In this document: piece after piece, positions 27,073 through 56,843 of the stretch
Layout of the letters: every line of letters begins with the position of its first letter
How positions within the stretch are numbered: the first letter of the stretch is position 1
Assembly: GCA_963763215.1 (NCBI GenBank)
Contig: CAVXNX010000006.1
Location: forward strand, 83,718 to 147,717
Direction of reading: 5' to 3'
DNA: 64,000 bases
Source of the DNA: an uncultured Bacteroidales bacterium
Lineage (GTDB): Bacteria > Bacteroidota > Bacteroidia > Bacteroidales > GCA-2748055
Made by a program: the position numbers and the translations under genes
The notes under the pieces: model-generated
Databases searched by the model: none
The model's input: only the letters and a program-made list of their open reading frames with translations
What the model was told of the DNA's origin: nothing

Positions 27073-27245
27073 ATTTATTCCATGGTTAACCTCGTGATCA
27101 TTCCGTTTTATCTCCAAAAATGAATTAAAATGATCGATTTATAGCTGAATGATGTATATTTATTTCGTGACATAGAAGCGTATCTCAGAATACTAACATG
27201 ACCTACAAGCTACGCCGTGATTTGTTCATCCTGTACCGGGGAAAA

Positions 27246-30200: not shown

Positions 30201-31138
30201 ATTTTGTGACCAATTTTGGGACATATCCGGAATACACCGTCGATGTTGGCGGGGGAAGTGATGTGGGATGGATCGACCGGGGCGATTATCTTGACTACGC
30301 ACTGGACGTCAGTGCAAGCAAAATTGTATACCCTCAGCGCCAGGGTGTTGCCTCCAGCCTATGATTCCCGGATTATCTGGCAATATCCCGGTACGAAAAC
30401 CCTCAACCTTGATACCATCCCGATTTCCGCACCGGGAACGGCAGCGGAATGGGTAACGATCTATTCAGTCGCCAGGTTGACAGCCGGTCGTCAGTACTTG
30501 CGAATGCTTGCTGAAACCGGCGGATTCAAGGTGAACTGGTTCGATTTCCGTTCAGGGGATGTTATGCCCCGGGCAAGGATCACCGGTCTGAAACTGGATC
30601 CTGAAGGCACGACCCTGGAGATGACCTGCGATAAAGATCTGAAGCCGTATCCTGTCAGCGCGCTGGGATTCGCCATCACCGTCGATGGTGAGCCGACCGG
30701 GATAAAAAATGTGATGGTTAAACCCTGCTGTCACAAGGTAGTGGTGATCAGTCTGAACGGATCCATCGGCCCGCCTTCCGGTAAGGCCGTGCTGTCCTAT
30801 TCAGGCGGGTACATCCGGGCATTCGACAATACCCCGCTGCAGGATACCGCCAATGCTGTCATTTTTGACTTTACACCGGTCGTTCCGCCGCATTACATCA
30901 GGACACCGGTGAACATCTTCCCGAATCCGGCCAGTCATGAAATCACCATCGAGACGTCTTTCCGTTTTCAACGGATCGATATCCTGGATACCAATGGGCG
31001 GGTGGTCATGACCGAAACAACCAAGGCAGAGGTACAGAACGGCGAACCATTAAGATGAACCTGCCAGCGGGTGAATACATGGTGCGGCTGACCGGCAGCG
31101 GACAGTGTATGACGAAGGGATTTGCGGTGGTCAGATGA
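27246..31138 (+). pseudogene. large secreted GH43 glycosidase with two CBM6-like modules, Ig-like repeats and a T9SS C-terminal sorting domain; at least five frame disruptions
   Basis: GH43 N-terminus NPVIPGDHPDPNLFRDG in ORF 27198..28964. CBM6-like GGIHHLDW...TGGWETF...HDLYLLF in 28792..29826. Further pieces in 29655..29933, 29930..30364 (KVEAEDF...GWIDRGDYLDY) and 30216..31058 (FPNPASHEITIE...). The final LPAGEYMVRLTG...FAVVR* ends at 31138. Frame changes are near 28860, 29650, 29925, 30300 and 31050. Confidence 0.8.
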
Positions 31139-31187
31139 TCTGCCCCGGTAACCCCGGAAATGATCGGATGAGGAAACAGAAAATGGA

Positions 31188-32429
31188 TTAACGTCTTCTG
31201 GAGGAGTTTTTCATCGACGCAAAATACTCCTGTTTTCGCTGCATCTTCTCCTTTTCGTAGGCTTTCCTCTCCTTTTCGTTCATCGGACTGTCGGTCTGCG
31301 GGTAGGGATTTTCCTTCACCAGGGGGATCTTCTTGTTGATCAGCTTTTCAATGTCGCGCATGTAGGCATTTTCTTCCGGTTCGCAGAGGGAAATGGCAAC
31401 GCCGGTTTCTCCTGCCCGTCCCGATCTGCCGATCCGGTGAACATAGGTTTCGGCGATATTCGGGATGTCAAAATTGATGACATACCGGAGTTTTTCGATG
31501 TCGATTCCCCGTGCCGCGATGTCGGTGGCAACCAGCACCCTGATCTCACCGGCCTTGAACCTGGACAACGATTTCTGCCGCTGGTTCTGTGCCTTGTCGC
31601 CATGAATGGCTTCGGTGGAAATGTGCCATTTTTTCAGGTCACGGGCGATGCGGTCCGCTCCATGCTTGGTCCGCGAAAACAAAAGGACCTGGTCGATGCT
31701 CTGATCCTGAAGGATATGGAGGAGGAGATCTTTTTTGGTGGATTTGTTCGTGTAATACAGGTATTGCTGAATGGTGCCGGCAGTGGAAGAGATGGGTGCA
31801 ACGTCGATTTTGCGGGGATTCCGGAGGATTTTTGCCGAAAGGGCAACAATATTGTCAGGCATCGTGGCTGAAAAAAACAAGGATTGGCGTTTTTCCGGCA
31901 GCCTGGTGATAATTTTCCGGATATCGTGGATAAAGCCCATGTCAAGCATCCTGTCGGCCTCATCGAGAACGAAGTACCGGATGTCGTCGAGTTTCACATA
32001 GCCCTGGTCCATCAGGTCGAGCAACCGGCCGGGTGTGGCCACAAGGATATCTGCGCCCCTTCTCAGGGCATCGGTCTGCTGACGTTGATTGACGCCGCCA
32101 AAAATGACAACATTTTTTATTCCGGTGTATTTTCCATATACCGAAAAACTTTCACCGATCTGGATGGCCAGTTCGCGTGTCGGGGTGACGATGAGCGCCT
32201 GGATCTTCCCCGTTAAGCGGTTTTGACGCGGTGATGCGCTGAGATGCTGGAGGATCGGCACTGCAAAGGCCGCGGTTTTGCCGGTGCCGGTCTGGGCGCT
32301 TCCCAGGACATCGGACCCGCTGAGAATAATCGGGATGGCTTTTTCCTGTATGGGGGTCGGTACGGTGTAATCTTCTTCTCTTAGTGCTTTTAAGATAGGT
32401 TCAATGATTTTAAGATCTTCAAATTGCAT
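31188..32429 (-). CDS. DEAD-box ATP-dependent RNA helicase
   Basis: AQTGTGKT, VLDEADRMLDMGF, SAT and HRIGRSGRAG motifs. Start taken at MQFEDLKI; the ORF track start is 32501. Confidence 0.9.
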   Translation of the reverse strand: MQFEDLKIIEPILKALREEDYTVPTPIQEKAIPIILSGSDVLGSAQTGTGKTAAFAVPILQHLSASPRQNRLTGKIQALIVTPTRELAIQIGESFSVYGKYTGIKNVVIFGGVNQRQQTDALRRGADILVATPGRLLDLMDQGYVKLDDIRYFVLDEADRMLDMGFIHDIRKIITRLPEKRQSLFFSATMPDNIVALSAKILRNPRKIDVAPISSTAGTIQQYLYYTNKSTKKDLLLHILQDQSIDQVLLFSRTKHGADRIARDLKKWHISTEAIHGDKAQNQRQKSLSRFKAGEIRVLVATDIAARGIDIEKLRYVINFDIPNIAETYVHRIGRSGRAGETGVAISLCEPEENAYMRDIEKLINKKIPLVKENPYPQTDSPMNEKERKAYEKEKMQRKQEYFASMKNSSRRR

Positions 32430-32634
32430 AAATGATGTGTGAATTTTCCCGGAAGATATTCCCGGGGTTACCCAAAATGGGTGATGGATAAAAAAGAACA
32501 AAGGTAGACATTAAATCCATGCCGGTGACATTTTCGGCATTTATTTACCGGTTAGCCGTCATTCAGCCGGGCCGCCGCGCCTGAAATCTTCGCCGGCTGG
32601 CCAGAAATTCCTGTTCCGGTTTTCTGCCGGTCGC

Positions 32635-33316
32635 CTATCCGTTCTTGTCCGTCAGCAGGGCTTTTCCCTTTGTCAGCCACGACAATCCGAATCCCCATAG
32701 CGCTAAAGATTCGAGCCAGAATACGGGTTTCAGATGTTGAATCGATTCACACCCTCCGTGGTTGTTGCAAAAAATGTATCCTCCGATCAGTACGATACAT
32801 CCGGTCATGGTATATCCGCAAAGGCGGTAGAGCCTGTTCCGTTTGAGTTTCATCGGAGTGGGATGCTTCACCGACCTGGTGAACAGGAAAATGGAATAAT
32901 AGGCCAGCGTCAGGAAAAAGCCGGCAGCCGAAACAAAGTGAACTGTACCGGTCAGGTGACTGTGAAAAGCATTGACGAGGCAACTCGAAGGAGGCTCAGC
33001 AACAGAAGTCGGGAACAGGGCCACTCCAGAAGGCGAACACCCCGCCCAGGTTGCTGGCAATGGTATCCGTTTTCCCATATCCCTTGTACGTCATCAGGAA
33101 AAGCCCGATAGCGGAGACCATGCCGACAAAAACATCTCTCATGCGGGTAAAGTAATAGGCACTAATGGAATCCTGGATTTCCCGGCAATTGTCAATCAGA
33201 AAAGATCCCGTCACCAGGATGAGTGGAAGCAATATGCCAAGGATCCCAATCCATTTTCGAAGCAACTGGTAGGATATAAGCCCGGGTTCCCGGCGCGTAC
33301 TGTTATTTTTCTTCAT
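32635..33316 (-). pseudogene. multi-pass membrane protein of unrecognised family, one frame disruption near 33030
   Basis: ORF 32996..33316 and ORF 32635..33078 are both hydrophobic and join as ...IASNLGGVFA|...VALFPTS... Confidence 0.5.
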
Positions 33317-33648
33317 TGGCCATCACTGAATGTCACAAAAGTAATCCGTAGGAATGCTTTGAATTTTTCAGGATCAGAAATCACTTCAGGGCTCTCGTTT
33401 TGCATAGTTTCCATCGGCATGTTAACCCGGACCTGTTTCAGTACAATCATGCCAGGTTTTTGGTTCATTGCTTCAGGCTCCATTTGCCGGGTGCTCCCGG
33501 AATATTTCATCGAAAACGCCCGGTGTACACTGTATTCGTCCACGAAAGTTTTTTTCAGGCGAAGTCCGTTCGCTCTGCCATTGGCCAGGACCTTCGAAAG
33601 GGCAGTTCCTGTGAACAGGATCCGGTTGCCGGTTTCCGGCCGCTGCAA
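33313..33648 (-). CDS. hypothetical protein
   Basis: 111-aa ORF that overlaps the downstream membrane protein gene by 4 nt. I see no recognisable motifs. Confidence 0.35.
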   Translation of the reverse strand: MQRPETGNRILFTGTALSKVLANGRANGLRLKKTFVDEYSVHRAFSMKYSGSTRQMEPEAMNQKPGMIVLKQVRVNMPMETMQNESPEVISDPEKFKAFLRITFVTFSDGQ

Positions 33649-33752
33649 AATGTCATTTTCCGGGTTGAAACCATTGCATTCATGTTTGAAACGTCACCGG
33701 CCTTAAAATCCGGTTATTTCCGTACTTTTACATACAAACCGATCAAAAGACT

Positions 33753-35186
33753 ATGAAAACGAAAATTCTTATCCTGTTACTGATGATGTTAATGGATGGT
33801 ATTCATGCCCAAAAATACACTGCCGACTGGAATTCCATCGATTCCAGGCCTGTTCCGGAATGGTTTGTCAATGCGAAATTCGGCATTTTCATTCACTGGG
33901 GGGTGTATTCGGTACCGGCATACCGCCCGGTCGGAAAAGAACGGTATTCTTCATATGCGGAATGGTACGAATCGGCTGTGATGCCCGATACGGTTCCTGG
34001 CGGAAGAGATTTTCATATCCGGAATTATGGAGCGGACTTCGAGTACCGCGATTTTGCACCCATGTTCCGGGCTGAGCTTTGGGATCCCGATTATTGGGCT
34101 TCACTGTTTAAAAGGGCAGGTGCAAGGTATGTGGTTCTGACTTCCAAACATCATGATGGCTTTGCGTTATGGCCATCCTCATCGCCATACTCAAAAAACT
34201 GGAACAGCATGGATATTGGCCCACACAGGGATCTTCTTGGTGAACTGGCAAAAGCAGTGAGAAATGACGGGTTGAAAATGGGCATTTACTATTCGCTGAT
34301 GGAATGGGAATCTGTTGAAAAGGCCGATGGCGATGGAGGAACCAGTCAGAAGGAATATATTCCTGATTCTCTCCGGCAAAAATACGGCATAAAAGATCCG
34401 GCCTATGTCAATGACCACATGATCCCCCAGATCAGGGAACTGGTCATGAAGTATCAACCGGCACTGATCTTTGCCGATGGTGAATGGGATAAGCCTGATT
34501 CATATTGGAAAAGTAAAGAAATACTGGCCTGGATCTATAACAATGCACCCAACCGCGACGAAATCGTGGTCAATGACCGCTGGGGGATGGGTACCAGGGG
34601 ACATCACGGCGGATATTATACAAGTGAATATTCAAGCGATGCGGATCAGATGTCTGCTCATCATCCGTGGGAAGAAAGTCGCGGCATCGGGGGATCCTAC
34701 GGATATAACCGTGCCGAGAACATCGATGATTATAATACATCGGAAGATCTGATTTTTGAACTCGTGGATATCGTTAGCCGTGGTGGAAATCTTCTCCTGA
34801 ACATCGGTCCTGCCGCCGATGGCACGATACCGGTAATTATGCAACAACGACTGGTAGATATCGGTAACTGGCTTAAAACAAACGGTGAGGCCATATATGA
34901 CACCCGGGCGTGGAAATCGTCTTCACAGGTTTCAGGTAACAGCGCGATTTATTTTACCACGAAAGGAAATGATCTTTATGTCATTTCCAGGGGCTGGCCC
35001 ACCCATGATATTGAAATCAATGGACTTCCTGGTCGTGAAGGTTCCCGGATTGAAATTCTGGGCAGCGATGTCGTGCTGAAATCTGATATTCGATCGGCGA
35101 AATTTGTGATTCCGGTAAAAGGGATACCGCAAGGCAAAGTGCCATGCGAATATGGTTATGTGTTCAAGATTGGCAATATCCTGTGA
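33753..35186 (+). CDS. GH29 alpha-L-fucosidase
   Basis: Signal peptide followed by RPVPEWFVNAKFGIFIHWGVYSVPAY and TSKHHDGFALWPS, the hallmark GH29 segments. Confidence 0.9.
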   Translation: MKTKILILLLMMLMDGIHAQKYTADWNSIDSRPVPEWFVNAKFGIFIHWGVYSVPAYRPVGKERYSSYAEWYESAVMPDTVPGGRDFHIRNYGADFEYRDFAPMFRAELWDPDYWASLFKRAGARYVVLTSKHHDGFALWPSSSPYSKNWNSMDIGPHRDLLGELAKAVRNDGLKMGIYYSLMEWESVEKADGDGGTSQKEYIPDSLRQKYGIKDPAYVNDHMIPQIRELVMKYQPALIFADGEWDKPDSYWKSKEILAWIYNNAPNRDEIVVNDRWGMGTRGHHGGYYTSEYSSDADQMSAHHPWEESRGIGGSYGYNRAENIDDYNTSEDLIFELVDIVSRGGNLLLNIGPAADGTIPVIMQQRLVDIGNWLKTNGEAIYDTRAWKSSSQVSGNSAIYFTTKGNDLYVISRGWPTHDIEINGLPGREGSRIEILGSDVVLKSDIRSAKFVIPVKGIPQGKVPCEYGYVFKIGNIL

Positions 35187-35231: not shown

Positions 35232-35930
35232 TCACCCTCTGTCGGACAATTCCCGCAATGCCTCGATATTCAGGATATTGACCTTTTTCCCGTCGACCAT
35301 GGCAATCTCATCCCGTTCGAATTCTTTAAGGATCCGGATGGCGCTGTCTTTGGACATGGCGGTCATATCGGCCAGATCCTGCCGGCTGAGGGGGATCTCG
35401 AAAATCAGCGATCCGTAGACCCGTTCGGAGAGGTAGATCAGCGCATCGGCCATTTTACCGTGCATTTGCTTTTGCGTGAGACTGAGAATTTTCTGATAGG
35501 TCTGGATGGTTTTTTGATTCAGATGCCTGATGAAATGTTCTGCAAAATCGGCATTGCTTCTCAGGACCTTTTTGAAATTGTCGGCATTGACAAAACAAAC
35601 GACCGAATCTTCGAGTGCCGTCACCGTGTAATGATTCCGGTTGTCGGTGAAAAGGCCGGGGCCGCCCAGGATGGCATGGGGCGTGACCAGATTCAGCAGA
35701 AGATTCCGCTGATCGTATCCTTCAATATATACTTTGGCAAATCCCTGTACCAGGTTGGAGACATGCGTGAGGATCGTTCCCTGTTTGATGATATTTTCCC
35801 CGGCCCTGAAATGAACTTCAAAGCGTTCTTCATTTAAAAGCTGTGTTTCCTCCTGGCTTAACAGACGGAACAATTCCGATTTCGTATTGCACTCTTCACA
35901 ACTTTTGCAAATCTTAGATCTCTGGTACAC
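35232..35930 (-). CDS. Crp/Fnr family transcriptional regulator with an N-terminal Cys cluster
   Basis: cNMP-binding-like fold plus a C-terminal HTH (SRQDLADMTAMSKDSAIRILKEFE). The N-terminus ICKSCEECN gives CxxCxxC, with one further Cys (VVCFV). The start codon appears to be GTG. Confidence 0.85.
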   Translation of the reverse strand: MYQRSKICKSCEECNTKSELFRLLSQEETQLLNEERFEVHFRAGENIIKQGTILTHVSNLVQGFAKVYIEGYDQRNLLLNLVTPHAILGGPGLFTDNRNHYTVTALEDSVVCFVNADNFKKVLRSNADFAEHFIRHLNQKTIQTYQKILSLTQKQMHGKMADALIYLSERVYGSLIFEIPLSRQDLADMTAMSKDSAIRILKEFERDEIAMVDGKKVNILNIEALRELSDRG

Positions 35931-36023: not shown

Positions 36024-36037
36024 TCGATCTAAATCGA
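36024..36037. promoter_or_regulatory. TCGAT-N4-ATCGA palindrome, candidate Crp/Fnr-type box
   Basis: A 5-4-5 palindrome read directly, in the 221-bp divergent region between the Crp/Fnr gene and the cytochrome operon. It has the same geometry as TTGAT-N4-ATCAA FNR boxes, but a chance occurrence is not negligible. Confidence 0.25.
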
Positions 36038-36151: not shown

Positions 36152-36538
36152 ATGATACAAAACATGAGAAGAAATAGATCAGTGGTCTTAAAGGTGTTTC
36201 TTTTCAGCTTGATGTTCACAGGCTTATGCCTGTATTCATGTGAAAAATACACCTATGAACCCCCGGGAGTCAATCCCAATAAAGTCTACAGCTTTAAGGA
36301 CGATGTTTTACCCATTTTCAAAAGCTGCGAAGGATGTCATCCTTCAAAAGCCAGGCCTGATCTCAGCCAGGCGAAAGCATACCAGTCATTGACCGATGGG
36401 GGCTATGTCAATACAGCCAAACCTGAAGAAAGCAACATCATCAAGAAGCTTGGAAAAGGACATGGCGGTCTGAATGATTCCTCACCCGAATACTTTGATA
36501 TCCTTGGCTGGATCATGCAGGGAGCCAAAAATAACTAA
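36152..36538 (+). CDS. small c-type cytochrome-like lipoprotein (single CxxCH, PSCyt1-like)
   Basis: Signal peptide with lipobox LYSC. VLPIFKSCEGCHPS...GGYV...KPEESNIIKK matches the layout of the planctomycete-type cytochrome c domain as I remember it. Confidence 0.65.
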   Translation: MIQNMRRNRSVVLKVFLFSLMFTGLCLYSCEKYTYEPPGVNPNKVYSFKDDVLPIFKSCEGCHPSKARPDLSQAKAYQSLTDGGYVNTAKPEESNIIKKLGKGHGGLNDSSPEYFDILGWIMQGAKNN

Positions 36539-36566: not shown

Positions 36567-37402
36567 ATGAAAAGCATAATTGCATTCACCCTTTGTTTAT
36601 GCTTGTTGTCCCGGTGTTCGGCCAGGATGAGAATGAAGACAAGCCGGTCAGATCAACCTTTGAGACCACGCTGCTGATCGATAACCAGACGGTGGAAAGT
36701 CCATACCAGGGCGGACTTCAGTTTCAGATCCAGCACAGGTTCGGTACGGTGAAAAACGGGATCACCGATATTTTCGGCATTTATGCCCCGTCAAATATCA
36801 GGCTGGCCTTGAATTACGGAATCACCGACCGCATCATGATCGGTGCAGGAAGTACGGAAAATTACAAACTGCAGGATGTCCAGTGGAAATATGCCATTCT
36901 CCGGCAGACCCGCTCTGGAAAGATGCCTGTTTCATTGAGTTATTATGGCAACATGGTTATCGATGCCCGGGCCAAAGATAACTTCGGCCCTGAAGAAAGT
37001 TACCGCGGCATCCACCGGTTTTCATACTTTACCCAGTTGATCCTGGCCCGGAAATTTAACCCGATGTTCTCCTTCCAGGTGGCTCCCGGTTTCATCTATT
37101 ATAACAGTGTCGAAACAGGTCTGAAGAATGCCGATTTCACTATTCATGCCGGAGGGCGTGCCAAAGTAACGGGTGCCCTTTCCGTCCTGGCCGAATACGA
37201 CCAGCTTCTCACCCAGCAGGATGGCTTCCAGCCGAAACCGAATCTGGCCGCCGGGATCGAGATCGGTACAGCGACCCATGCGTTCCAGATCTTCTTTGCC
37301 AACTATTCATCCATCATCAACCAGAGAAATCTCCTTTACAATACCAACGATTTCACCGAGGGAGATTACCGGGTTGGCTTTAACATCACTGTCAGATTCT
37401 GA
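36567..37402 (+). pseudogene. outer-membrane beta-barrel protein (DUF5777-like); the signal peptide is in a different frame from the barrel
   Basis: ATG 36567 encodes MKSIIAFTLCLC.... The barrel ORF (36593..37402) begins ...LVVPVFGQDE, shows alternating amphipathic strands, and ends ...GFNITVRF with a terminal Phe beta-signal. The frame change is near 36590-36600. Confidence 0.6.
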
Positions 37403-37413
37403 TAATCCCCATT

Positions 37414-38423
37414 ATGAAGAAAACCAGGAAATCCATTATCCCTCTTATCATTCTCGGAGCAGGTTTGTTCGGCCTGCTGATCAACTCGGCGAGGGCAGAT
37501 TTACAGCAGAAAGAGCCGCCCAGCGAAAAGGGAATCGAGAATTCGGCCTTTGCAGATGAAAACGAACAATGTCTTAAATGCCATGGAGAAAAATTCTATA
37601 CCCTGACCGATTCGGCGACCGGACAAACCAAGCGGGCCAATATGTGTCTGGACTACAGGATCAACCGGAACGAATTTTACCATTCGGTTCACTGGAGTTT
37701 CAGCTGTCCTCGATTGCCATTCCGATGAGTACCAGACCTTCCCCCACGCTCTTAAACTCAGGTTCGCCGATTACTGGACATGCCTGGACTGCCATGGATA
37801 TGATGAAAAATTTGCACAGTACAAGTTTGAGGAGATCGATGCAGAGTGCCAGAAGTCGGTGCATTATACCAAAACAAACGGAGATTTCTCCTGCTGGAAT
37901 TGTCATGATCCCCACAGTTATAAACTTCTGTCCAGGAAAACGGAAAATGTGTCGGATGTCATCGTGGCCACCAATAACATCTGTCTGAACTGTCACGGCA
38001 ACGAGGAAAAATTCAGACTCCTCTCCAGTCGTGACCTCGGTAATGTCATCCCGAAACATGACTGGCTTCCCAATCAGGAATTGCATTTCAAAGCGGTACG
38101 TTGTATCGAATGCCATTCTGAAATGAACGACAGCCTGCTGATCTCCCATGATATCCTTCCGGCCGACAGTGCCGTGCGTAACTGCGTGGAATGCCATTCC
38201 AGCAATTCCATCCTTATGGGCACCCTGTATAAATTCAGGTCGAAAGAAAAACGGAAAGAATACGGCTTCATCAATGGTGTCATCATCAACAACGATGCCT
38301 ACGTGATTGGCGCGAACCGGAGCCAGTTTCCTCAATATCGCCAGTGTGGTGATCATTGTCCTCATGTTGATCGTCATGGCCATCCATGTCTTGTTTAGAG
38401 TAATATTGAGAAAAAAAGATTGA
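37414..38423 (+). pseudogene. heptahaem c-type cytochrome with N-terminal signal/anchor and C-terminal TM helix; two frame disruptions (~37717, ~38343)
   Basis: Seven CxxCH motifs after frame repair: CLKCH, C(L)DCH, CLDCH, CWNCH, CLNCH, CIECH and CVECH. My translation after 38343 in the alternate frame gives LNIASVVIIVLMLIVMAIHVLFRVILRKKD*, a TM anchor, with stop at 38421-38423. Both shifts sit at TCCTC where TCTC would keep the frame. Confidence 0.8.
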
Positions 38424-38426
38424 ATT

Positions 38427-39044
38427 ATGTCTGAAAAAATATATTTCTACCCGGTATGGATCCGGATCTGGCACGGTCTGAATGCCATCTTCATCCTCCT
38501 GCTCATCCTGACGGGAGTCAGCATGCAGTATTCTGATCTGAATTCCCCTTTTATCCGGTTCGACGTGGCTGTGTCGATGCATAACTTCAGCGGAGTGATC
38601 CTGACCTTGAACTATTTCCTGTTTTTCGTCGGGAATATTGCCAGAAAGAACGGCCGGTTTTACCGCCTTAAATTCAAGGGACTCGGATTAAGCCTGTGGA
38701 AACAGCTTAAATACTATTCCTATGGGGTTTTCACGGGTGAAAAGTCCCCTTATCCCGTGAACAGGGACAGGAAATTTAACCCGCTGCAGAAAGTTTCTTA
38801 TGTGTTCACGATGTATATGGCACTACCTTTGTTATTCGTCAGTGGCTGGGCACTTTTATTCCCGGAATTTATCCTGAAAAAATTACTCGGATTTTCCGGG
38901 ATTTTCCTGACGGCCCAGTTGCACATCGTTATGGGATTTCTTGTATCTGTGTTCCTTGTCATTCATTTATATGTCAGCACCATGGGTAAAACTCCTGGAA
39001 GTAATTTCAAGAGTATCGTTACCGGCTGGCAGGAAATTCATTAA
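38427..39044 (+). CDS. membrane cytochrome b (PhsC / Ni-Fe hydrogenase b-type / formate dehydrogenase gamma family)
   Basis: 205 aa with four or more hydrophobic helices and conserved His positions (IWHGLNA, SMHNFSG, AQLHIVMG, VIHLY) typical of the PF01292-type family. Confidence 0.75.
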   Translation: MSEKIYFYPVWIRIWHGLNAIFILLLILTGVSMQYSDLNSPFIRFDVAVSMHNFSGVILTLNYFLFFVGNIARKNGRFYRLKFKGLGLSLWKQLKYYSYGVFTGEKSPYPVNRDRKFNPLQKVSYVFTMYMALPLLFVSGWALLFPEFILKKLLGFSGIFLTAQLHIVMGFLVSVFLVIHLYVSTMGKTPGSNFKSIVTGWQEIH

Positions 39045-39069
39045 AACCATTCATTAAAAATTGAGAGAT

Positions 39070-39480
39070 ATGAAAAAAAATGCCTTGATTTCAGTAGTTG
39101 TGATGACGCTTGCAGTGATTTCACTCATGTCATTTACCATTACCCAGCAACAGCCCAAGCCCTGGCCGGTCCCTGCTGAGTATAAAAACATGAAAAACCC
39201 TGTTAAAGCTGACGCCCAGTCGATCCAGGATGGCAAAATGCTTTACAACCGGAACTGTGCTTCCTGCCATGGTAAATCAGGTCTTGGCGACGGACCCAAG
39301 GCCCGTATGCTTGATACACCTTCCGGAGACTTTTCTGCCGCTTATTTTCAGAATCAGACCGATGGGGAACTTCACTACAAAACAAAGGTGGGACGCGGTG
39401 ATATGCCTGCCTATGATAAAAAACTCAGTGATGAGGATATCTGGAATATCGTCAATTACATGAGAACCTTTAAAAAGTAA
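39070..39480 (+). CDS. monohaem class I cytochrome c
   Basis: Signal peptide, CASCHG haem site and a distal Met in RGDMPAY. Confidence 0.85.
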   Translation: MKKNALISVVVMTLAVISLMSFTITQQQPKPWPVPAEYKNMKNPVKADAQSIQDGKMLYNRNCASCHGKSGLGDGPKARMLDTPSGDFSAAYFQNQTDGELHYKTKVGRGDMPAYDKKLSDEDIWNIVNYMRTFKK

Positions 39481-39501
39481 GACAATTGTTTTTATTTTCA
39501 G

Positions 39502-39528
39502 CCCCGGACAATGTTCCGGGGTTTTTTT
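39502..39528 (+). terminator. rho-independent terminator after the cytochrome operon
   Basis: CCCCGGA-caatgt-TCCGGGG stem-loop followed by T7. Confidence 0.8.
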
Positions 39529-39679
39529 ATGGTATCGTGTGGCGTAAAAAGGACATGCATTGCCATAAACACTGTCCTGAATGACAGCCTGACAGGCAAA
39601 AAGTGCCAGTTCGGACTGTTCAGCGTGTTTTTTACACACAATATGAACCAAAATCGTTAGCATTCCTTCCTGTTTTATG

Positions 39680-39687
39680 TATTTTTG
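39680..39687 (+). promoter_or_regulatory. candidate -7 promoter box TATTTTTG
   Basis: Matches TAnnTTTG, 58 nt upstream of ATG 39745. Confidence 0.3.
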
Positions 39688-39744
39688 TACGGTTGAAATG
39701 TGCGAAAGATTTCTGATTTGTTTGAACCGAAAAAACATAAAAAG

Positions 39745-41004
39745 ATGAAAAAGTTATTTACCCTGTTTATTGGATTAATGAGTTTGGCCAATGTGCATGC
39801 ACAACTGGATACCACCGGTATATACAGCTGGCCTCAAATGTATAACTCAATGAGCACCTGGGATGAGGGTGCCTTTAATTATTTTCAGCTCGGTCATCCC
39901 GATTATGGCTGGGGAATCTACAATTCCCAAAATCACAATGTAGACGGCGATTCGCTTTTTATCATCAAGACCACCGACGGGAATTACAGGGACCTGTATA
40001 TCCAGATGAAATACAGCGTTCAGAATTATTACATTTTCCGGTACACCAATGTTGACGGAGGGAATGAGATTTACGCCAAAGCCCCCTGCTATGATTACAC
40101 CAGCAAACTTTTCCTTTACTATTCTTTTGAAACCGGGCAGTTTATCGACCGTGAACCGCCCAGGTCCGATTGGGACCTGCTCCTGACAAAGTATCACGAT
40201 AACACCATTAACTACACTGTGACCGGACTGCTTCTGAACGAGACGGCCTCGGCCTGCGTTTTCGATGCCGCTGATTCGGCCACTGCTTACAATGCCTCCA
40301 TTCAGGATACGACCCTCTTCTCCGATTCGCTCACCATCATCGGAAATTCCTGGTACGAACTGCAGGGGATGTCGATCGTTCCGTTGAAAACCCGTGCCTA
40401 CTTCATCAAGGATGCCACCGGGGATGTCTTCCGGCTCAATGTTACCTACTTTGAAAGCGGGATAAGCGGACAGGGCAGGGTTGGCGTGCGTTACCAGCAG
40501 CTTCTGCCTTCGGAAACGGACCCTGTCAACGATACCCTGGTTATGGGTGCCAATTATGCCAATGATGTCTATTACCACCTCTCCACAGGCGACGCCGTGC
40601 AGGCAAGCCGTGCCGACTGGGACATTGCCTTCAAAACCAATGCCTTCAGCGCTTCCATCCGGACCAATACCACCATGGGTGTTGAATTGTATACCTATCC
40701 CAAGGCCGACGAGACCGCCTGGGCCACCTATGGTACCGGAAAAACCCTTTCCGGACCGGAACCCCTCTCGGTCTATCCAAATCCGGTTTCGGATGAGGTG
40801 AATCTCCGTACAGGAAGCTTCCGTCCGGGTGAGGAACTGAATATCCGGGTGTCGGATATGACGGGCCGCGAAGTGCTCCGTCAAAAAGTGCCGGCATCCG
40901 GCCTGGTAACCCTCGATCTGCACCACCTCCAGACAGGGGGCTATTTCATCACTGTGAGATCGGCGAACCGGGTCGAGACGGCCAGGATCATCAAAACGAA
41001 ATAA
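39745..41004 (+). CDS. HmuY-like domain protein with T9SS C-terminal sorting domain
   Basis: Signal peptide MKKLFTLFIGLMSLANVHAQ. DWDLLLTKY and ADWDIAFKTN are HmuY-family signatures as I remember them. The C-terminus VYPNPVSDEVNL...GREVLRQKV...LQTGGYFITV is a T9SS CTD. Confidence 0.65.
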   Translation: MKKLFTLFIGLMSLANVHAQLDTTGIYSWPQMYNSMSTWDEGAFNYFQLGHPDYGWGIYNSQNHNVDGDSLFIIKTTDGNYRDLYIQMKYSVQNYYIFRYTNVDGGNEIYAKAPCYDYTSKLFLYYSFETGQFIDREPPRSDWDLLLTKYHDNTINYTVTGLLLNETASACVFDAADSATAYNASIQDTTLFSDSLTIIGNSWYELQGMSIVPLKTRAYFIKDATGDVFRLNVTYFESGISGQGRVGVRYQQLLPSETDPVNDTLVMGANYANDVYYHLSTGDAVQASRADWDIAFKTNAFSASIRTNTTMGVELYTYPKADETAWATYGTGKTLSGPEPLSVYPNPVSDEVNLRTGSFRPGEELNIRVSDMTGREVLRQKVPASGLVTLDLHHLQTGGYFITVRSANRVETARIIKTK

Positions 41005-41025
41005 TAAACCGAGTGAAGGGTTGAT

Positions 41026-43259
41026 ATGAAGAGAATTGCTGGCCTGTTCGTATTGTTCATCCTCTTTGCTGTTTCGGCTTTTCCGCAGGAAATGGCAAAG
41101 ATTAAACTTGTTGACAAGGTCACAGGGGAAGTGTTGCCTTTTGCGAACCTGTGCTTTGAAAACAAAACGCTGAATAAACAAACCTTTCAGGTCTCCGATA
41201 TCCACGGTGATGCCTCCGAGGCTATCAAGGGAAAAACCGTCGTCGCGGTATCCATGATCGGCTATGAAACGCTCATGGATACCCTCTACACCGGCGGAAC
41301 ATATACCTATAAGCTCAAACCTGCCGTTTTTGACATGGATGAGGTGGTGGTCACCGCCCAGATCACACCCAAAAAAGTCGATAATTCCATTTATAAGGTT
41401 AATGTCATCAGCAACCTCGATATCAAGGAAAAAGCGGCAAATAACCTTTCCGACCTGCTTTCCGATCGACTGAATTTCAGGATCACCCAGGATGCGGCCC
41501 TGGGCTCCGGTCTCATGCTGAACGGGCTCAAAGGTGAACACATCAAGATCCTGATCGACGGCGTTCCGGTGATCGGCCGGATGAACGGAAACCTCGACCT
41601 GGGACAACTCAACCTCAATAATGTCGATCATATCGAAGTGGTTGAAGGACCCATGTCGGTGCAATACGGTTCCAATGCCCTGGCGGGAGCCATTAACATC
41701 ATCACCCGGGAAAATACCCGGAATAACCTTACCGCCGGGATCAACAGCTATTATGAAACCGTTGGCGTTTACAATGCCGACGGCTCGTTCTCGATGAACC
41801 GGAAAAACCATTCGGCGGGATTGGATGTCGGTCGGAATTTCTTTGGAGGCTATCCCGCGGCCGGAAGGGATCCGGACCCGGCTCTTCAAACCCAAGGAAC
41901 AGTACTTTGGCGACGGATATTACGCCTTCCACTCCGGGGGAACAAAGATCAAGGCCGATGTACGCTATTTCCGCGAAACCCTCCTCCAGAACGGCGCCCC
42001 GGTAACGGTCGGGCATAATTACGGTCTCGCCTCAGATTCCCGGTTTTACACCAACCGGTTGACCGGCAAGCTGTTTTTTCAGCAAAAACTCGGGGAGAAC
42101 AGCAACCTGGATATCGTCAATGCCATGGCTGATTACCGCCGTGTAAAAAATACCTATCTCAACGATCTTGTCAGGCTGGAGAAAACCATCAACCCCGATG
42201 CCAGCCTCCAGGATACATCCACCTTCCGGGATTATATGTCCCGGGGAACCTGGTCCTATTCGCATCCCGACGGTACCTTCAACCTGCAGTCAGGCTATGA
42301 TTTCACCCTTGAAACCGGCACCGGGAAACGGATCCTCAACAATAAACAGGCCATCGGCGATTACGCGGTCTTTTCGACCATAAACCTTAGCATGATCCGC
42401 ACACTGGACCTTCAGGCAGGGCTTCGATATGCCTACAATACGCGATACGAAGCCCCGGTTGTGCCTTCACTGAACATTAAATTTTCACCTTCCAAAAAAT
42501 TGAACTTCCGGGCCTCCTATGTCAGAGGGTTTCGCGCCCCATCCCTTAAGGAACTTTATCTCGAATTCCAGGATATCAACCATAACATTCTGCCCAGCCC
42601 GAACCTGAAATCGGAAATGTCACACAACGTCAATGCCTCTGGAAATTACCGGTTTGATGCCGGAAAGAATTTTTTTGATCTCGAGGTGAACGGTTTTTAC
42701 AACCAGATCGAAAACAGCATCCAACTTGCCCTGGTCGATTCAGCGACCAACCAGTACGGTTATGTCAATGTCGATGGTTACACCACGAGCGGCGGATCGG
42801 TGAAGCTGAGATACAGGCTCCATCCCCGGTTTGAATTGTCGCTGGGAGAATCGGCCATTAACCATTATTATTACTTCACCGGGGAAAACGGCAGGGTCGA
42901 TGACCAGGCCATGAGCTATGAATTTACGGCCAACATGAATTATGACTCTCTTCAGGTATGATATGGTTTTTTCAATCTTCTATAAGTATACCGGGAAGTA
43001 TCCATTGCTCGCCGGTTCGGGAGATGACCTGCATTTCGGCATGGTCGACGCTTACAATACCATGGACATCACCCTGAATAAGTCCTTTTTCAACAAACAA
43101 TTGACCATCGGCACCGGGGTGAAGAACCTGTTCAACGTCACCAATGTTTTCAATGGAGGCGGATCGGCCGGGGTACATAGCGGGGGAGGGGATACCAGCC
43201 CTGTCTCATGGGGACGTTCCTGGTTTCTGAGGCTGGCTTATCAATTTGCAAAGTATTAA
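41026..43259 (+). pseudogene. TonB-dependent receptor (CarboxypepD_reg-like N-domain + plug + barrel), two frame disruptions (~41860, ~42945)
   Basis: Plug motif NVDHIEVVEGPMSVQYGSNALAGAINIITRE in ORF 41026..42018, barrel in 41825..42961, and terminal strands ...RSWFLRLAYQFAKY in 42942..43259. Confidence 0.85.
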
Positions 43260-43260
43260 C

Positions 43261-44277
43261 ATGAACGATCGATTCTATTTAGTCGCAATCGCCATCCTGA
43301 TGATGGCTCTTCTGCCATCCTGTTTTGAAAAGGATGAACGGATGCCGCCGCAGCCGCCCGGCGAAGAAGCCGATATTGCCCTGCAGAAATCCATTTACGA
43401 CTACCAGGTGTATTTCGATTTCAGTACCGGCACAGTGAAAGGCGGAATGGCCGAACGACAGCTGGGTGATGGCTTTCGATGCGTCCGGCGACGGATGGGA
43501 GGTGAATATCAATTCGGGGAACCTCTATGCCGTGGCACCCACCGGCGTTCATGATTTTGACTCCGTGACCTCCATCACCCAGGCAAGCGTTACCAGTTTG
43601 ATGCCGCCGACGGAAATCCCGATTCATGTGCCTTTGCGGACTGGCTCGACCGTTCCGTAATGCCCGCCCAACCCACGGGAGAAATTTTCCTCATCGGACA
43701 ATACGACGGGATCAAATACACGCCGATCTGGAAGGTCCGGATCGATTCGGTGAGCAGCACAGCCTTCTCGGTGACCTGTGCGGGCATGAAGGGACAGCCT
43801 GTTTCCTCGGTCGTGACGAAAGATCCCTCATTCAGCTTCATTCATACGGCCATCCAGGGAGATTCCCTTCACGTTGTTGACATCGAACCCCCAAAGACCG
43901 ACTGGGATCTGTTATTCACGCAGTATGGAACCATATTGTATACGGATAACGGCATCCCGACGCCTTATTTCGTCCGGGGTGTGCTCCTGAACCCCTATAA
44001 AGTGAATGCTGCCCTTGACTTCAGTGTTCCTTTCGATTCGATTGACTGGGATGCGGCTCAAAAATTCCACTATTCGGATAAACGGAATGCCATCGGGTAC
44101 GACTGGAAAGATGTTATCATTGATTTCGAATCGAACAGCGCTGAATATTTTGTGCGCAAGGATTCATCATGGGTCATTCAGGATACGGAAGGACGGTATT
44201 TTAAAATGCATTTTCTGAATTATTACAATTCCCTGCACCAGGTGGGATACCCCGAATTTGAATACCTGGAGTTATAG
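43261..44277 (+). pseudogene. HmuY-like lipoprotein, two frame disruptions (~43440, ~43585)
   Basis: Lipobox LLPSC in the ORF from 43261. DSWVMAFDASGDGWEVNINSGN lies in 43466..43660, and KTDWDLLFTQY...YDWKDV in 43660..44277. Confidence 0.65.
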
Positions 44278-44368
44278 ATGAAAGGTCTTTGAATTCGGGT
44301 TACAAACTGAATATTAACCGATGCCCGGCCTCGACGGCCGGTTGTCTTTTTCTTTAGAGGTAATCGTT

Positions 44369-44734
44369 ATGAAACCAATCCTGATCGCCGGTTCATCCAT
44401 CGTCACTGTGGCTCTCGTGCTTTACAGTATCTCCTATTTTTCATTTCACAAAAAGAAGACGATCACCCGGTCGTTGCTGCGCATCCAGACACTGGCACTG
44501 GTCTTCGACATCACCGCCACCACGCTGATGATCATCGGTTCGGAGAACAGCCCGTTCACTCTTCATGGCATCCTGGGATATTCCGCTCTCACGGTGATGA
44601 TTATCGACACCGGCTTTTTCTGGGCAAAACGGAAAACCGTTCAGCTCGGATGGCTTTCGGTCTATTCCACCGTTGCCTGGGTATGGTGGGTGGCCGCCTA
44701 CATCACCGGCAGCGCGATCGCGATGTCATCCTGA
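44369..44734 (+). CDS. four-TM membrane protein, HsmA/TIGR03987-like (possible haem-binding)
   Basis: LVFDITATTLM and LHGILGYSALTVMII resemble the conserved segments of that family as I remember them. Start taken at MKPILIAG. Confidence 0.45.
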   Translation: MKPILIAGSSIVTVALVLYSISYFSFHKKKTITRSLLRIQTLALVFDITATTLMIIGSENSPFTLHGILGYSALTVMIIDTGFFWAKRKTVQLGWLSVYSTVAWVWWVAAYITGSAIAMSS

Positions 44735-45045
44735 AGACAGAGATCCGGAAAATCCGGGCTTCGGCCATGAACCGTCCGCTCTATCATCGTTCACTCCCGA
44801 CCTGCTCCTGGTTTATACAGGAACCGGACAAACATCTTTTCTGCATTACTCGCCGTCTATTACTGACTTTGTCCGGCACTCGCCGGCGGGACAATGAATA
44901 TGTCTTATCAGTCCTGAAATAAAGCTCCTGCCAGATGTTCATGTCCAATGCGATTGGTTTCAGGGATTCAAATTTCCCGCTGCCATGACTTCGTCAATGC
45001 ACATGTCAGCTTTTCAGAACGGGGTGAAAGGGAGGATTTCAGCGC

Positions 45046-45081
45046 AAAAAAAATCCCCGGGATTTGCCCGGGGATTTTTTT
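45046..45081. terminator. bidirectional rho-independent terminator
   Basis: A7-ATCCCCGGG-atttg-CCCGGGGAT-T7. It lies 27 nt past the stop of the minus-strand hexahaem gene and downstream of the plus-strand hmuY-like operon. Confidence 0.8.
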
Positions 45082-45107
45082 CTTGAAGAATGATCAAATG
45101 TTCGTTG

Positions 45108-46138
45108 CTAATTAAAGGCTTCAATGGAATTCTGCAGAAGGGCTTTAATATAGGCGGGATTATGAATCCCTATACTTCTGTCTTCCGTAGCGAGATAATA
45201 ATTCAGCAGTGCTCCGGCCTGGTTTGCCGGGATGACAAGCGGCGTTGAAGCGCTGGCATTGACAAGTCCGGTGGCGTCGACCAGGATACCTGCATCGACA
45301 AGATCCGTTTTGAGGTTGTCGATCAAGAGCCTGTACATCGGTCTGAACATTGTGATAATCGAAGCTTTTGAGATCTGAATGGCATTTCTGGCATCCGGCG
45401 GTCAGTTCAACCGGACCATGTGAATCGTAGGTCATGTTGAAGGAATGACCTCCGGCAACAGCGCCGAAAGGTTCTGCCATATGGCAGGTGGTACAACCGG
45501 CGTCGTGATGCGTTGCGTCTGAACCGGACTTTGGATAAGGTGCAGAGCCCGGCAGATTCATAACCGCCTGTTCCCCAAACCATGGCAGACTGCGGTCCGT
45601 GATGGGGCCCCCAGCGGTTTGAGGTAATGCTGACATTTCCGCCGTTGAGTTCCGGCATTGGGTTGGGTATCCTCGGTTGATGGCAACTGATGCAGACATT
45701 GCTCTTTCCGAGATCGACCTCTGCACCGCTGATCATCATGGTGACGGGAGACTGACCTCTCAGATCGAAATCGGTAGTGTCATAATTTTCATGGATCATG
45801 TGACAGGTACGGCAGTTTACCGGAACCGGATTGGAAACATCAGCAGCCGTTGTTTCAGCACCGGTGCTCAAAACTTCAAGATACCCCTGGTGTGTGTGGC
45901 AGGGTGCGCAGTCGGAAGTGCTTCTCTCAAAGGTCGTACCGGTCTGATGTGCTGAATTGGATGCCTGGATCATTTTCGCCAGTACAGTGGTTTTATCGTT
46001 ATGACACTGTATGCATGTTTCGTTGGCGTCCTGGCCAGCCGGTCCTGCCGGTCCCTCGCAGGAGGTAAGGAAACTCAGCCCGATCCCCACAGAGAAAATC
46101 ATCGTCGCTGCAGCGAAGGTAAAGGAGAATTTTTTCAT
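45108..46138 (-). pseudogene. hexahaem c-type cytochrome lipoprotein, two frame disruptions (~45560, ~45320)
   Basis: Lipobox LTSC then GPAGPAGQD. CIQCH, CAPCH, CRTCH and CISCH are in ORF 45407..46138. CTTCH and CQKCH are in 45160..45726. The C-terminal part is in 45108..45350. Confidence 0.8.
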
Positions 46139-46431
46139 ATCTATTCGTGTTATTTAATTAACATAAAACATTTTAAAAATACTCCGATTCTCCTATTTAT
46201 TCAAAGTAATACAGGTGATATGCATTAGATATAAAGCCGATATAGACGACAGCTGCGACGTTTCCATGTCTGTCAAAATATCGACATATATCGACGAAAT
46301 ACCCGGCATTGATTTTGCCTGACGATCAATCCGTTGGATTCTCTCCGCAATGATTCGGTTATCTTCCGGCTTTTGTGAGCAGTTGGTCCGGCTGGTTTCA
46401 AATCCGGACTTGAAATCTTGCATTTTCGGGT

Positions 46432-46439
46432 TATCTTTG
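46432..46439 (+). promoter_or_regulatory. candidate -7 promoter box TATCTTTG
   Basis: Matches TAnnTTTG, 24 nt upstream of ATG 46463. Confidence 0.35.
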
Positions 46440-46462
46440 GTCTATTCTCAAACCTAACGACG

Positions 46463-47605
46463 ATGTCTAAAACACGGATTTCCCCCAGATCTGGTCTGGT
46501 TTTCGCCGGATCGGCCATTGCCATTACGATTCTCATCATTTCCGGATTCAGAGGGCCCTCGCAGGGCATGAAGCTCACTTCGCCGGTATCCCACCCGGAA
46601 GGGGATGACATCCGGTTATGCCAGGTTTACCGGGATTACTTTCCGGTGGGAACCGCCGTTTCGGTGAGGACCCTATCTGGTCCTGATACCCTCCTTCTGT
46701 TGAAGCATTTTAACAGTGTCACCCCCGAGAATGCCCTGAAGCCCGGACCCGTTCATCCGGAGATCGACCGGTATGATTGGCGCGGAGCCGACAGGATCGT
46801 GGATTTCGCCACACGGCACGGGATGAAAATTCACGGGCATGTGCTGGTGTGGCATGAGCAGGCCCCCGGTTGGCTCTTCAAATCGGGAGACGGAAAGGTT
46901 TCCCGGGATGAACTTCTCCGGCGAATGAAAGACCATATCTTTACCGTTATGACGAGATATAAGGGCCGTATCGATGCATGGGATGTTGTGAATGAAGCGG
47001 TGGCTGACCAGGGACCGGAAATTTACCGTCGTAATGAATGGTATGAGATCTGCGGAGAGGATTATGTCAGGCTGGCCTTTGAATATGCCCATCAGGCGGA
47101 TCCTTCCGCCCGCCTGTTCTACAATGATTATAACATTGTCCTCCCGGAGAAAAGAGAGCGGGCTTACCGGTTGCTGAAGAAACTCCTCGGGGAAGGTGTT
47201 CCGGTCACCGGTGTGGGAATCCAGGGGCACTGGTCCGTGTTCGAACCCTCAGAGCAGGAACTGGAGGAGGCCATCCGGCGATTTTCCTCTCTCGGCTTAG
47301 AGGTGCAGATCACCGAGCTTGACATGTCGGTTTATAAGTGGGAGAAAGACCGCCGGGAAAAATATCCCGGTGAAGCAGACACTCTGACCGCCGGGATGGA
47401 AGCCGACCAGGTGGCTCAATATGGAATGATTTTCCGTACACTGCGGGAAAACAAAGAAGCCGTAACCGGCGTGACCTTTTGGGGAATGACCGATCGGACC
47501 TCCTGGCTGAATCATTACCCGGTCAGGGGCCGAAAGAATTATCCCCTCCTTTTTGACCGGGAGGGGAAGCCCAAGAATGCTTTTTTTGAAGTGGTGAACT
47601 TCTGA
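46463..47605 (+). CDS. GH10 endo-1,4-beta-xylanase
   Basis: NSVTPENALKP, HGHVLVWHEQAPGW, WDVVNEA and ITELDMS (catalytic Glu motifs). The ORF track start at 46418 is a TTG. Confidence 0.9.
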   Translation: MSKTRISPRSGLVFAGSAIAITILIISGFRGPSQGMKLTSPVSHPEGDDIRLCQVYRDYFPVGTAVSVRTLSGPDTLLLLKHFNSVTPENALKPGPVHPEIDRYDWRGADRIVDFATRHGMKIHGHVLVWHEQAPGWLFKSGDGKVSRDELLRRMKDHIFTVMTRYKGRIDAWDVVNEAVADQGPEIYRRNEWYEICGEDYVRLAFEYAHQADPSARLFYNDYNIVLPEKRERAYRLLKKLLGEGVPVTGVGIQGHWSVFEPSEQELEEAIRRFSSLGLEVQITELDMSVYKWEKDRREKYPGEADTLTAGMEADQVAQYGMIFRTLRENKEAVTGVTFWGMTDRTSWLNHYPVRGRKNYPLLFDREGKPKNAFFEVVNF

Positions 47606-49792: not shown

Positions 49793-49971
49793 GTTGATGA
49801 CCGTATTTAATAGTTAGATGTTGAGATGTTAAAAGTTCTAAAAATTTGAATGAATTGTTAGATAAATAATTATATATTATAATGAAAATACTTCGGCAAG
49901 TCAGATACTTACGATTTTCTTTATTCGGAACTTATTATTTCAGAATATATGAATCTTAATATTAAACTTTT

Positions 49972-54551: not shown

Positions 54552-54579
54552 CAAAATCTGAAATGAATTTAATCATGAT

Positions 54580-56816: not shown

Positions 56817-56843
56817 TTTAGGGAAATCCTCGCTGATTGATGC

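Follow-up and report, generated by a model that had tools for sequence, protein, structure and literature searches.

A heptahaem cytochrome c and dihaem cytochrome b gene pair related to Geobacter CbcBA in an uncultured Bacteroidales bacterium

The window analysed here is a 64,000-nucleotide (nt) stretch of contig CAVXNX010000006.1 (GenBank assembly GCA_963763215.1, positions 83,718 to 147,717) from an uncultured Bacteroidales bacterium of the GCA-2748055 lineage, and at positions 37414-39044 it carries two plus-strand genes, the first for a heptahaem cytochrome c and the second for a dihaem cytochrome b. This pair is a real feature, far beyond what chance would produce, with the caveat that the window sequence contains two frameshifts in the c gene. 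Judged by their sequences, the two proteins are true but distant relatives of the Geobacter CbcBA proteins and form a separate Bacteroidota subfamily, not a part of the Geobacter orthologue group. On balance we consider it probable that the pair is a Bacteroidales form of the CbcBA-type bc complex, that is, an inner-membrane menaquinol:cytochrome c oxidoreductase that sends electrons outwards.

Results

The cytochrome pair

The c gene is spread over three reading frames, the first running from 37414 to about 37707, the second from about 37709 to about 38329 and the third from about 38331 to the TGA at 38421-38423. For the repair, a single C was deleted at each of two CC pairs, 37708/37709 (TGT-C-CTC) and 38330/38331 (TTT-C-CTC). 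The repair is not arbitrary, because the resulting 335-residue protein aligns without gaps with intact public homologues of 334-336 residues (the closest at 85% identity), and because the first site can be read in L001, a relative on a 1.9-Mb contig with the same gene order as the window: L001 has TGT CTC GAC TGC CAT where the window has TGT C CTC GAT TGC CAT, a 1-nt insertion in the window. As the original prediction, made from the letters alone, had claimed, the repaired protein has exactly seven CxxCH sites (at residues 53, 98, 123, 160, 190, 230 and 257, the second of which spans the first frameshift) and a single C-terminal membrane helix, LNIASVVIIVLMLIVMAIHVLF, which was found in the third frame. 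Exactly seven CxxCH sites are likewise present in all 121 members of the c family that were compared, and His324 and Arg328 of the membrane helix are invariant in 117 sequences. Seven further His residues are invariant (93, 111, 150, 167, 215, 224 and 245), enough for all seven haems, and this conservation suggests bis-His ligation. When a model of the heptahaem protein (predicted local distance difference test, pLDDT, 75.7) was compared with the PDB by Foldseek, no match was obtained at E <= 0.001, with the caveat that haem-free models of multihaem proteins compare poorly; a sequence search of the PDB with both the c and the b subunit returned nothing relevant.

The cytochrome b gene begins 3 nt after the c stop codon (38424-38426), so that its position right after the c gene was predicted correctly and the predicted spacing of four nucleotides was not. 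Its product matches PF01292 (E 2e-23), and the best NCBIfam match is PhsC (NF011582; E 2e-44), with a score of 151.8 bits that lies below the cut-off of 204. The AlphaFold model (pLDDT 89.5) finds its best solved match in FdnI (1kqf_C; Foldseek probability 1.00, template modelling (TM) scores 0.72/0.68), followed by HyaC, and the description of the subunit as a PhsC/FdnI-like cytochrome b is thereby upheld. His16, His52, His166 and His180 are kept in every full-length representative and align with the four haem ligands of Escherichia coli FdnI, as well as with the corresponding His residues of HyaC; the conservation of four haem-ligand His residues had been named as a point to check, and all four are in place.

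Relationship to Geobacter CbcBA

For comparison, one genome per species was scanned for the pattern K-F-N-P-L-Q-x3-Y in GC-rich codons, and 120 loci were obtained, several of which bear the label Geobacter, Geobacteraceae or Desulfuromonadales. The Geobacter reference used here is a locus from a metagenome-assembled genome (MAG) of an uncultured Geobacter sp. (L051), picked by synteny, and not GSU0593/0594 of strain PCA. It opens with a divergent regulator of Response_reg, Sigma54_activat and HTH_8 domains, the architecture of BccR, and continues with a 358-residue cytochrome c that has seven CxxCH sites and a His-bearing C-terminal helix ending in ...PLFHGTLRFLTRKNRK. A 211-residue PF01292 cytochrome b overlaps the c gene and is followed by a 12-haem c7-type cytochrome and two further genes. 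This gene order is that described for Cbc5 (cbcEDCBA) and bccR (Joshi et al. 2021, bioRxiv 10.1101/2021.04.15.440034).

Both subunits of the window are homologous to those of this Geobacter locus, which bears out the predicted resemblance to CbcBA-type proteins. The b subunits are 32% identical over 207 residues (E 8e-34), and BLASTP aligns the repaired c with its Geobacter counterpart at E 5e-13 over the first six haems. With profiles built from 117 Bacteroidota and eight Geobacter-type c sequences, hhalign gives a probability of 99.9% (E 7.9e-33, 242 columns), and the match begins at the first haem and runs through the whole membrane helix, with all seven haem sites collinear. Landmarks common to the two groups are W-L-P-(N/Q)...H...C-x-x-C-H at haem 6 and Y-x-x-G-x-x-R...H...R at the helix, where the counterpart of His324, His339, is invariant in the Geobacter-type proteins. 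In Geobacter-type b proteins H18, H54, H170 and H184, hence all four ligand positions, are invariant; Joshi et al. (2021) count three His in CbcB.

The design is thus the same as in Geobacter CbcBA (Cbc5, GSU0594/GSU0593), a periplasmic heptahaem cytochrome c with a His-bearing C-terminal helix followed by a four-helix PF01292 cytochrome b, but the identity is only 24-32% and the surroundings differ. Beside the Geobacter pair stand BccR (a sigma-54 regulator), small upstream genes and CbcCDE, and in Bacteroidota their place is taken by a regulator of the Fnr type, a DUF5777 barrel, a lipoprotein cytochrome and a monohaem cytochrome c. A divergent BccR was sought at the window locus, where a regulator of the Crp/Fnr family stands instead; the BccR architecture was found in L051 and L074. 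Likewise, where CbcC/D/E were sought downstream of the pair, the window has the monohaem class I cytochrome c and L051 the 12-haem c7-type cytochrome. Geobacter-type CbcA also carries, between haems 6 and 7, an insert of about 80 residues with an EF-hand that is lacking from the Bacteroidota proteins. The motif D-x-N-G-D-G-x-I-S-x-x-E-L (PF13202, E 8e-6) occurs in L051:2992-4068 and in seven other Geobacter or Desulfuromonadales loci, suggesting a possible calcium site in Geobacter-type CbcA, and we met no mention of the insert in the accessible part of the CbcBA paper (Joshi et al. 2021).

The b subunit by itself is as near to PhsC as to CbcB (33% identity to enterobacterial PhsC and 32% to Geobacter CbcB). 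In a neighbour-joining tree with 100 bootstraps, Bacteroidota grouped with PhsC in 38%, Geobacter with PhsC in 31% and Bacteroidota with Geobacter in 15%, so the deep branches are not separated. The CbcBA label therefore rests on the c subunit and on the architecture of the pair. When the 50%-identity representatives were screened by cluster name for a Geobacter CbcB, the one candidate was P0408 of Desulfuromonas acetexigens; it was considered as a CbcB orthologue and rejected, being one of two tandem b genes without an adjacent cytochrome c. At a D. acetexigens-like locus (L003:7323-8633) such tandem PhsC-like b genes, again lacking a cytochrome c, neighbour corA and feoAB, and an N-type ATPase operon follows downstream.

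Distribution of the family

Relatives of the window proteins are numerous. In a word-indexed database, 1054 relatives of the b subunit were found at E <= 1e-5 and 1375 of the c subunit; the best 120 of the 1054 b relatives are 55-100% identical to the window protein, and those among these 120 with a named source are almost all from Bacteroidales, Bacteroidia or Bacteroidota MAGs. A HMMER scan of 1.84 billion representatives with the b subunit gave 614 clusters. The occurrence of the pair in Bacteroidota had been called unexpected in the original prediction, which does not hold: homologous cbcBA clusters have been reported from the Bacteroidetes Prolixibacter, Marinilabiliales and Labilibaculum, as well as from Caldithrix and Verrucomicrobia and, in fused form, from Chloroflexi (Joshi et al. 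2021), and more than 1000 relatives are public. We recovered the c-b module in Draconibacterium and Prolixibacteraceae MAGs, and the window pair is one more member of a family that is already noted in the literature and common in Bacteroidota.

Among the best 150 of the 614 b clusters, dozens of proteins combine in one chain a cytochrome c of seven CxxCH sites with this b domain, as natural fusions, and their seven haem sites and helix His align with the window protein. The large number of such fusions shows that c and b act as one unit. The partner of PhsC/CbcB-like b subunits varies between lineages: enteric bacteria have none nearby (PhsAB serve there), Bacteroidota, Geobacter and many others have a seven-haem c, Betaproteobacteria a nine-haem c (L005, L006, L030, L068, L072) and Nitrospirota a thirteen-haem c (L023, L071). 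The same b together with the ending of a helix with His was observed with 9, 13 and 10 haems in Betaproteobacteria, Nitrospirota and L079, respectively, and L094:3327-6128 encodes a 933-residue fusion of 19 CxxCH sites with the b domain. From these sequences, the length of the haem wire can apparently vary widely within the module.

Frame breaks in the cluster

The two frameshifts of the c gene do not stand alone. Within one 10-kb cluster (window 36567-46138), five genes together contain at least nine frame disruptions, near 36590, 37708, 38330, 41856, 42947, 43554-43660, 45330 and 45570. They affect the genes for the heptahaem c, DUF5777, the TonB-dependent receptor, an HmuY-like protein and the hexahaem lipoprotein, all five of which are intact in L001. 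The seven breaks that could be placed precisely are all single-base insertions or deletions at short homopolymer runs. Together with the intact genes in L001 and the retention of all 51 invariant family residues in the repaired c, this suggests that the two frameshifts in the c gene are probably assembly errors and that the gene is intact in the organism. If the extra bases were real, the heptahaem c would be a pseudogene, the complex would not be made and the locus would be decaying. The number of broken genes fits this, as does the finding that the 335-residue product is not in the protein database while the adjacent b is there at 100% identity. However, there are no deletions among the precisely placed lesions beyond the single homopolymer bases, no invariant residue has been lost from c, and the genes for b, the monohaem c, the small lipoprotein and the regulator are intact, which makes a pseudogene quite unlikely. 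Programmed frameshifting was rejected, as the homologues are unbroken and four other genes of the cluster are broken as well. An HmuY-like gene may in addition contain an in-frame stop. Elsewhere in the window, overlapping same-strand pairs of open reading frames (ORFs) at 17346-18761/18514-19899 and 27198-28964/28792-29826 might be further, unconfirmed breaks.

Neighbouring genes

The features of the region are collected in Table 1. The neighbourhood counts refer to 26 Bacteroidota-type loci from the pattern scan, 24 of which include upstream DNA and 19 of which were checked at ORF level.

Table 1. Features in and around the cytochrome pair (window coordinates)
Feature	Position	Strand	Remarks
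Fnr-like Crp-family regulator	35232..35930	-	cNMP_binding and HTH_Crp_2; best NCBIfam FnrL, Fnr; divergent from the cytochromes
Palindrome TCGATCTAAATCGA, candidate Fnr/Crp box	36024..36037	.	about 115 nt upstream of the first gene
Small lipoprotein, one CEGCH	36152..36538	+	128 residues; lipobox LYSC; no Pfam match
DUF5777 outer-membrane beta-barrel	36567..37402	+	PF19089, E 2e-77; frame break at about 36590, near the 5' end
Heptahaem cytochrome c, CbcA-like	37414..38423	+	335 residues after repair; signal peptide; C-terminal membrane helix with His324
Extra C, frameshift 1	37708	+	in the codon run of the second CxxCH; window TGTCCTCGATTGCCAT, L001 TGTCTCGACTGCCAT
Extra C, frameshift 2	38330	+	directly before the membrane helix; one C out of CAGTTTCCTCAAT gives ...ANRSQFLNIASVV..., gapless against homologues
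Dihaem cytochrome b, CbcB/PhsC-like	38427..39044	+	205 residues, four membrane helices; PF01292; intact
Monohaem class I cytochrome c	39070..39480	+	CASCH, Met ligand region GDMPAY; Pfam Cytochrome_CBB3, Cytochrom_C
HmuY-like protein (type IX secretion system sorting domain), TonB-dependent receptor, second HmuY-like protein, HsmA-family membrane protein	39763-44734	+	directly after the cytochromes
Hexahaem lipoprotein, GPAGPAG linker	45111..46138	-	two frame breaks; intact in L001 (344 residues, six CxxCH; L001:16976-18010)

The most constant neighbours of the pair lie upstream. DUF5777 stands beside it in all 24 Bacteroidota loci with upstream DNA; it is lacking from the loci of relatives outside Bacteroidota (Rhodospirillales, Magnetococcales, Ignavibacteriales). 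In the window its signal peptide (MKSIIAF...) is in another frame than the body of the protein, and the gene is intact in L001 (278 residues). The protein ends in ...ITVRF, and a terminal aromatic residue is typical of outer-membrane barrels. The small lipoprotein is found directly upstream of DUF5777 in 19 of 19 loci at ORF level, two copies having been missed by tblastn. Its two Cys and one His are always present with variable spacing (CxxCH, Cx4CH, CxCH), and most copies have a His or Met at a later position, an alternation as for a distal haem ligand. By these sequence features it is probably a monohaem cytochrome of an undescribed family. Homologues lie, for example, at L116:4041-4397 and L066:3919-4344, and in Porphyromonadaceae-like loci the domain is duplicated. 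Our literature search found no paper mentioning DUF5777, nor any report that the pair is constantly linked to DUF5777 and a small lipoprotein or is under Fnr-type control.

Downstream, the monohaem cytochrome c is present in 16 of the 26 loci, placed either after the b gene or between the DUF5777 and heptahaem genes. The genes of haem-uptake type that follow in the window keep their order in L001. The hexahaem lipoprotein, in which a collagen-like linker follows the lipid-anchor Cys, scores 29.3 bits against MtrC/MtrF domain II/IV, just short of the cut-off of 30, and this borderline match makes it a candidate surface cytochrome; multihaem lipoprotein homologues occur in 10 of 19 loci (for example, L111:6460-7812). 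In L065:4026-6307 and six other Draconibacterium-like loci the b gene is followed by a 4Fe-4S protein (Fer4_11) with a signal for twin-arginine translocation and by an NrfD-type membrane protein, a second quinone-interacting module adjoining the first. The whole cytochrome cluster sits among polysaccharide-degradation genes (glycoside hydrolase families GH3, GH43 and GH10, fucosidase-like) at 23466-35186 and 46418-47605, and capsule and export genes follow at 49004-61979, a typical saccharolytic Bacteroidales background.

The regulator and candidate boxes

The regulator has an N-terminal C8-x2-C11-x2-C14 together with C112, and its homologues, present in about half of the 26 loci, have the same four-Cys pattern as FNR (C-x2-C-x2/3-C and a later Cys). 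The palindrome TCGATCTAAATCGA is identical in L001, although the surrounding DNA is less than 75% identical. In 204,630 nt of Bacteroidota loci, seven perfect TTGAT-N4-ATCAA boxes were observed against 0.35 expected, and in several loci (L055:3506, L009:6336, L116:5751 and others) such a perfect box, or a conserved palindrome, precedes the module, the gene for the regulator or that for the multihaem lipoprotein. Within the window alone, matches to the FNR box with two mismatches are not above chance, and the signal is seen only when related loci are pooled. The palindrome at 36024-36037 may serve as a regulatory box.

Discussion

As a bc complex of the CbcBA type, the pair would work as follows. 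The four-helix b subunit, with its FdnI/PhsC fold, would hold two b haems on the four conserved His and have a quinol site. Subunits of the FdnI, HydC and PhsC types carry two haems across the membrane together with a quinone site. The heptahaem c would lie in the periplasm, tied to b by its C-terminal helix as a fifth helix beside the bundle, as FdnH is to FdnI, and the invariant His324 would be at the end of this helix that faces the cytoplasm, at the height of the inner b haem. From menaquinol, electrons would cross the two b haems and then the seven bis-His haems of c before reaching partners in the periplasm. The most likely partners in Bacteroidota are the monohaem c encoded with the pair, as the likely first acceptor, and then the lipoprotein cytochrome with the DUF5777 barrel, with the surface multihaem lipoprotein as a possible later step in many genomes. 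The adjacent Fnr-type regulator probably switches expression on without oxygen. The presence of all four b ligands and of a heptahaem wire fixed to b argues for a menaquinol:cytochrome c oxidoreductase that works outwards.

PhsC is said to run a reverse redox loop, in which menaquinol is oxidised at the cost of proton motive force. By analogy with this, and with the low-yield role of CbcBA in Geobacter, quinol may be oxidised on the cytoplasmic side near His324, which would spend proton motive force and let low-potential acceptors be reduced. In G. sulfurreducens, CbcBA is needed for acceptors below about -0.21 V and its use comes with a low growth yield (Joshi et al. 2021).

Several points weigh against an outward-directed complex of this kind. 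The b subunit is no closer to CbcB than to PhsC, and the function of the Bacteroidota form may differ, as it has neither BccR, CbcCDE nor the EF-hand insert. The type of monohaem class I cytochrome c encoded with the pair is often of high potential, and it fits a bc1-like role as well or better. A barrel of about 270 residues and a one-haem lipoprotein alone cannot carry electrons across the outer membrane in the manner of MtrAB, and the small lipoprotein is without a canonical CxxCH in five loci. The four haem ligands are already provided by the b subunit, which bears on the role given to His324. Finally, the frameshifts could be real.

The first of the other explanations keeps the complex but assigns it to periplasmic respiration or to the uptake of electrons, and not to the delivery of electrons to acceptors outside the cell. 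In the manner of bc1 or alternative complex III, the class I cytochrome c would then hand quinol electrons to an oxidase, peroxidase or N-oxide reductase of the periplasm; in the inward variant, a Cyc2-like unit in the outer membrane would draw electrons from Fe(II), Fe(0) or reduced humics. The monohaem c encoded with the pair is of the cbb3/c550 class I type with His/Met ligation, an Fnr-type regulator fits microaerobic or anaerobic respiration generally, and the combination of a small barrel and a one-haem protein is similar to Cyc2, the fused cytochrome-porin of iron oxidisers. Still, neither the window nor any of the 26 Bacteroidota loci has a terminal oxidase or reductase gene linked to the module, and the recurrent barrel, lipoprotein cytochrome and multihaem lipoprotein with its weak MtrC-like match point outwards, so that we regard this explanation as unlikely, if the strongest of the functional alternatives.

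The position of the module directly before HmuY-like, TonB receptor and HsmA-family genes, which L001 shares, could also mean that it serves haem or iron acquisition, for example by reductive release of iron. We find this very improbable: such genes are beside the module in none of the 26 other Bacteroidota loci, so the adjacency is lineage-specific, and a nine-haem quinol oxidoreductase would be unusually heavy for iron release. A haem auxotroph with many cytochromes to make would need haem for their synthesis, and the adjacency may reflect no more than this.

That b is the PhsC-type anchor of a molybdoenzyme encoded elsewhere (a thiosulfate, polysulfide or tetrathionate reductase), with c as an accessory, is suggested by its best named NCBIfam match, its identity to enterobacterial PhsC and the name 'thiosulfate reductase cytochrome b subunit' that the Joint Genome Institute gives to homologues, but we find it very improbable as well, since the score is under the PhsC cut-off, genes like PhsA/PhsB are found neither in the window cluster nor in the 26 loci, and the c gene that adjoins b here, and is fused to it in dozens of lineages, has no counterpart at enterobacterial phsC loci. 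The PhsC of PhsABC is a member of the same b family, but it is longer (about 260 residues, against 205 in the window), and its partners are the molybdenum and iron-sulfur subunits PhsA and PhsB, where that of the window b is a multihaem c.

Among other known systems, E. coli formate dehydrogenase-N (FdnI/FdnH, PDB 1KQF) offers the closest solved fold of the b subunit (TM 0.72) with the four ligand His aligned, and FdnH resembles the window c in that a periplasmic partner adds one extra membrane helix. The identity is, however, only 18-20%, and the partner in the window is a cytochrome c with a conserved His in its helix; formate dehydrogenase-N reduces menaquinone and builds proton motive force, whereas the flow in the window complex is probably the reverse. 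The cytochrome b of [NiFe]-hydrogenases (HyaC/HydC) also belongs to PF01292, and HyaC is the second-best structural match (6G94, 4GD3). A functionally important His is noted in the C-terminal helix of the Wolinella HydA small subunit (Joshi et al. 2021). The window b nevertheless scores 46 against a cut-off of 121 for the hydrogenase family in NCBIfam, and no hydrogenase genes are nearby.

Proteins of the NapC/NirT/NrfH/CymA type are likewise multihaem cytochromes c that link the quinol pool to periplasmic partners, and one c homologue is labelled 'NapC/NirT family' in its source. They have four haems, an N-terminal helix and a quinol site of their own, in contrast to the seven haems and C-terminal helix of the window c, where the quinol site would be in b, and the window c scores 21.5 bits against the NrfH family cut-off of 134.2. 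MtrAB, Pcc and Cyc2 are analogues only for the outer-membrane parts, namely the barrel, the haem lipoprotein and the surface multihaem lipoprotein; DUF5777 is much smaller than MtrB, and its lipoprotein has at most one haem site.

A wider proposal is that the Fnr-type regulator, haem lipoprotein, DUF5777, monohaem c, c-b pair and, often, multihaem lipoprotein together form a complete trans-envelope electron path of undescribed design, in which a small barrel and a one-haem lipoprotein would pair up in the outer membrane as a 'split Cyc2-like' unit. We consider this possible but doubtful. If true, many fermentative Bacteroidales of sediments, digesters and possibly guts would have a route to extracellular acceptors that is repressed by oxygen.

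CbcBA is one of the few sequence markers that have been proposed for extracellular electron transfer outside model organisms. The Bacteroidales pair is a confirmed homologue that travels with a barrel, a lipoprotein cytochrome and an Fnr-type switch and not with the Geobacter partners. Taken alone, the window adds one more member to a family of more than 1000 sequences that is already in the literature, but the set of partner genes is unstudied in the literature we found, and the part worth following is the constant linkage of the pair to DUF5777 and the small lipoprotein, together with the Fnr-type control. This set of genes makes low-potential or extracellular respiration by common polysaccharide-degrading Bacteroidales a question that can be tested.

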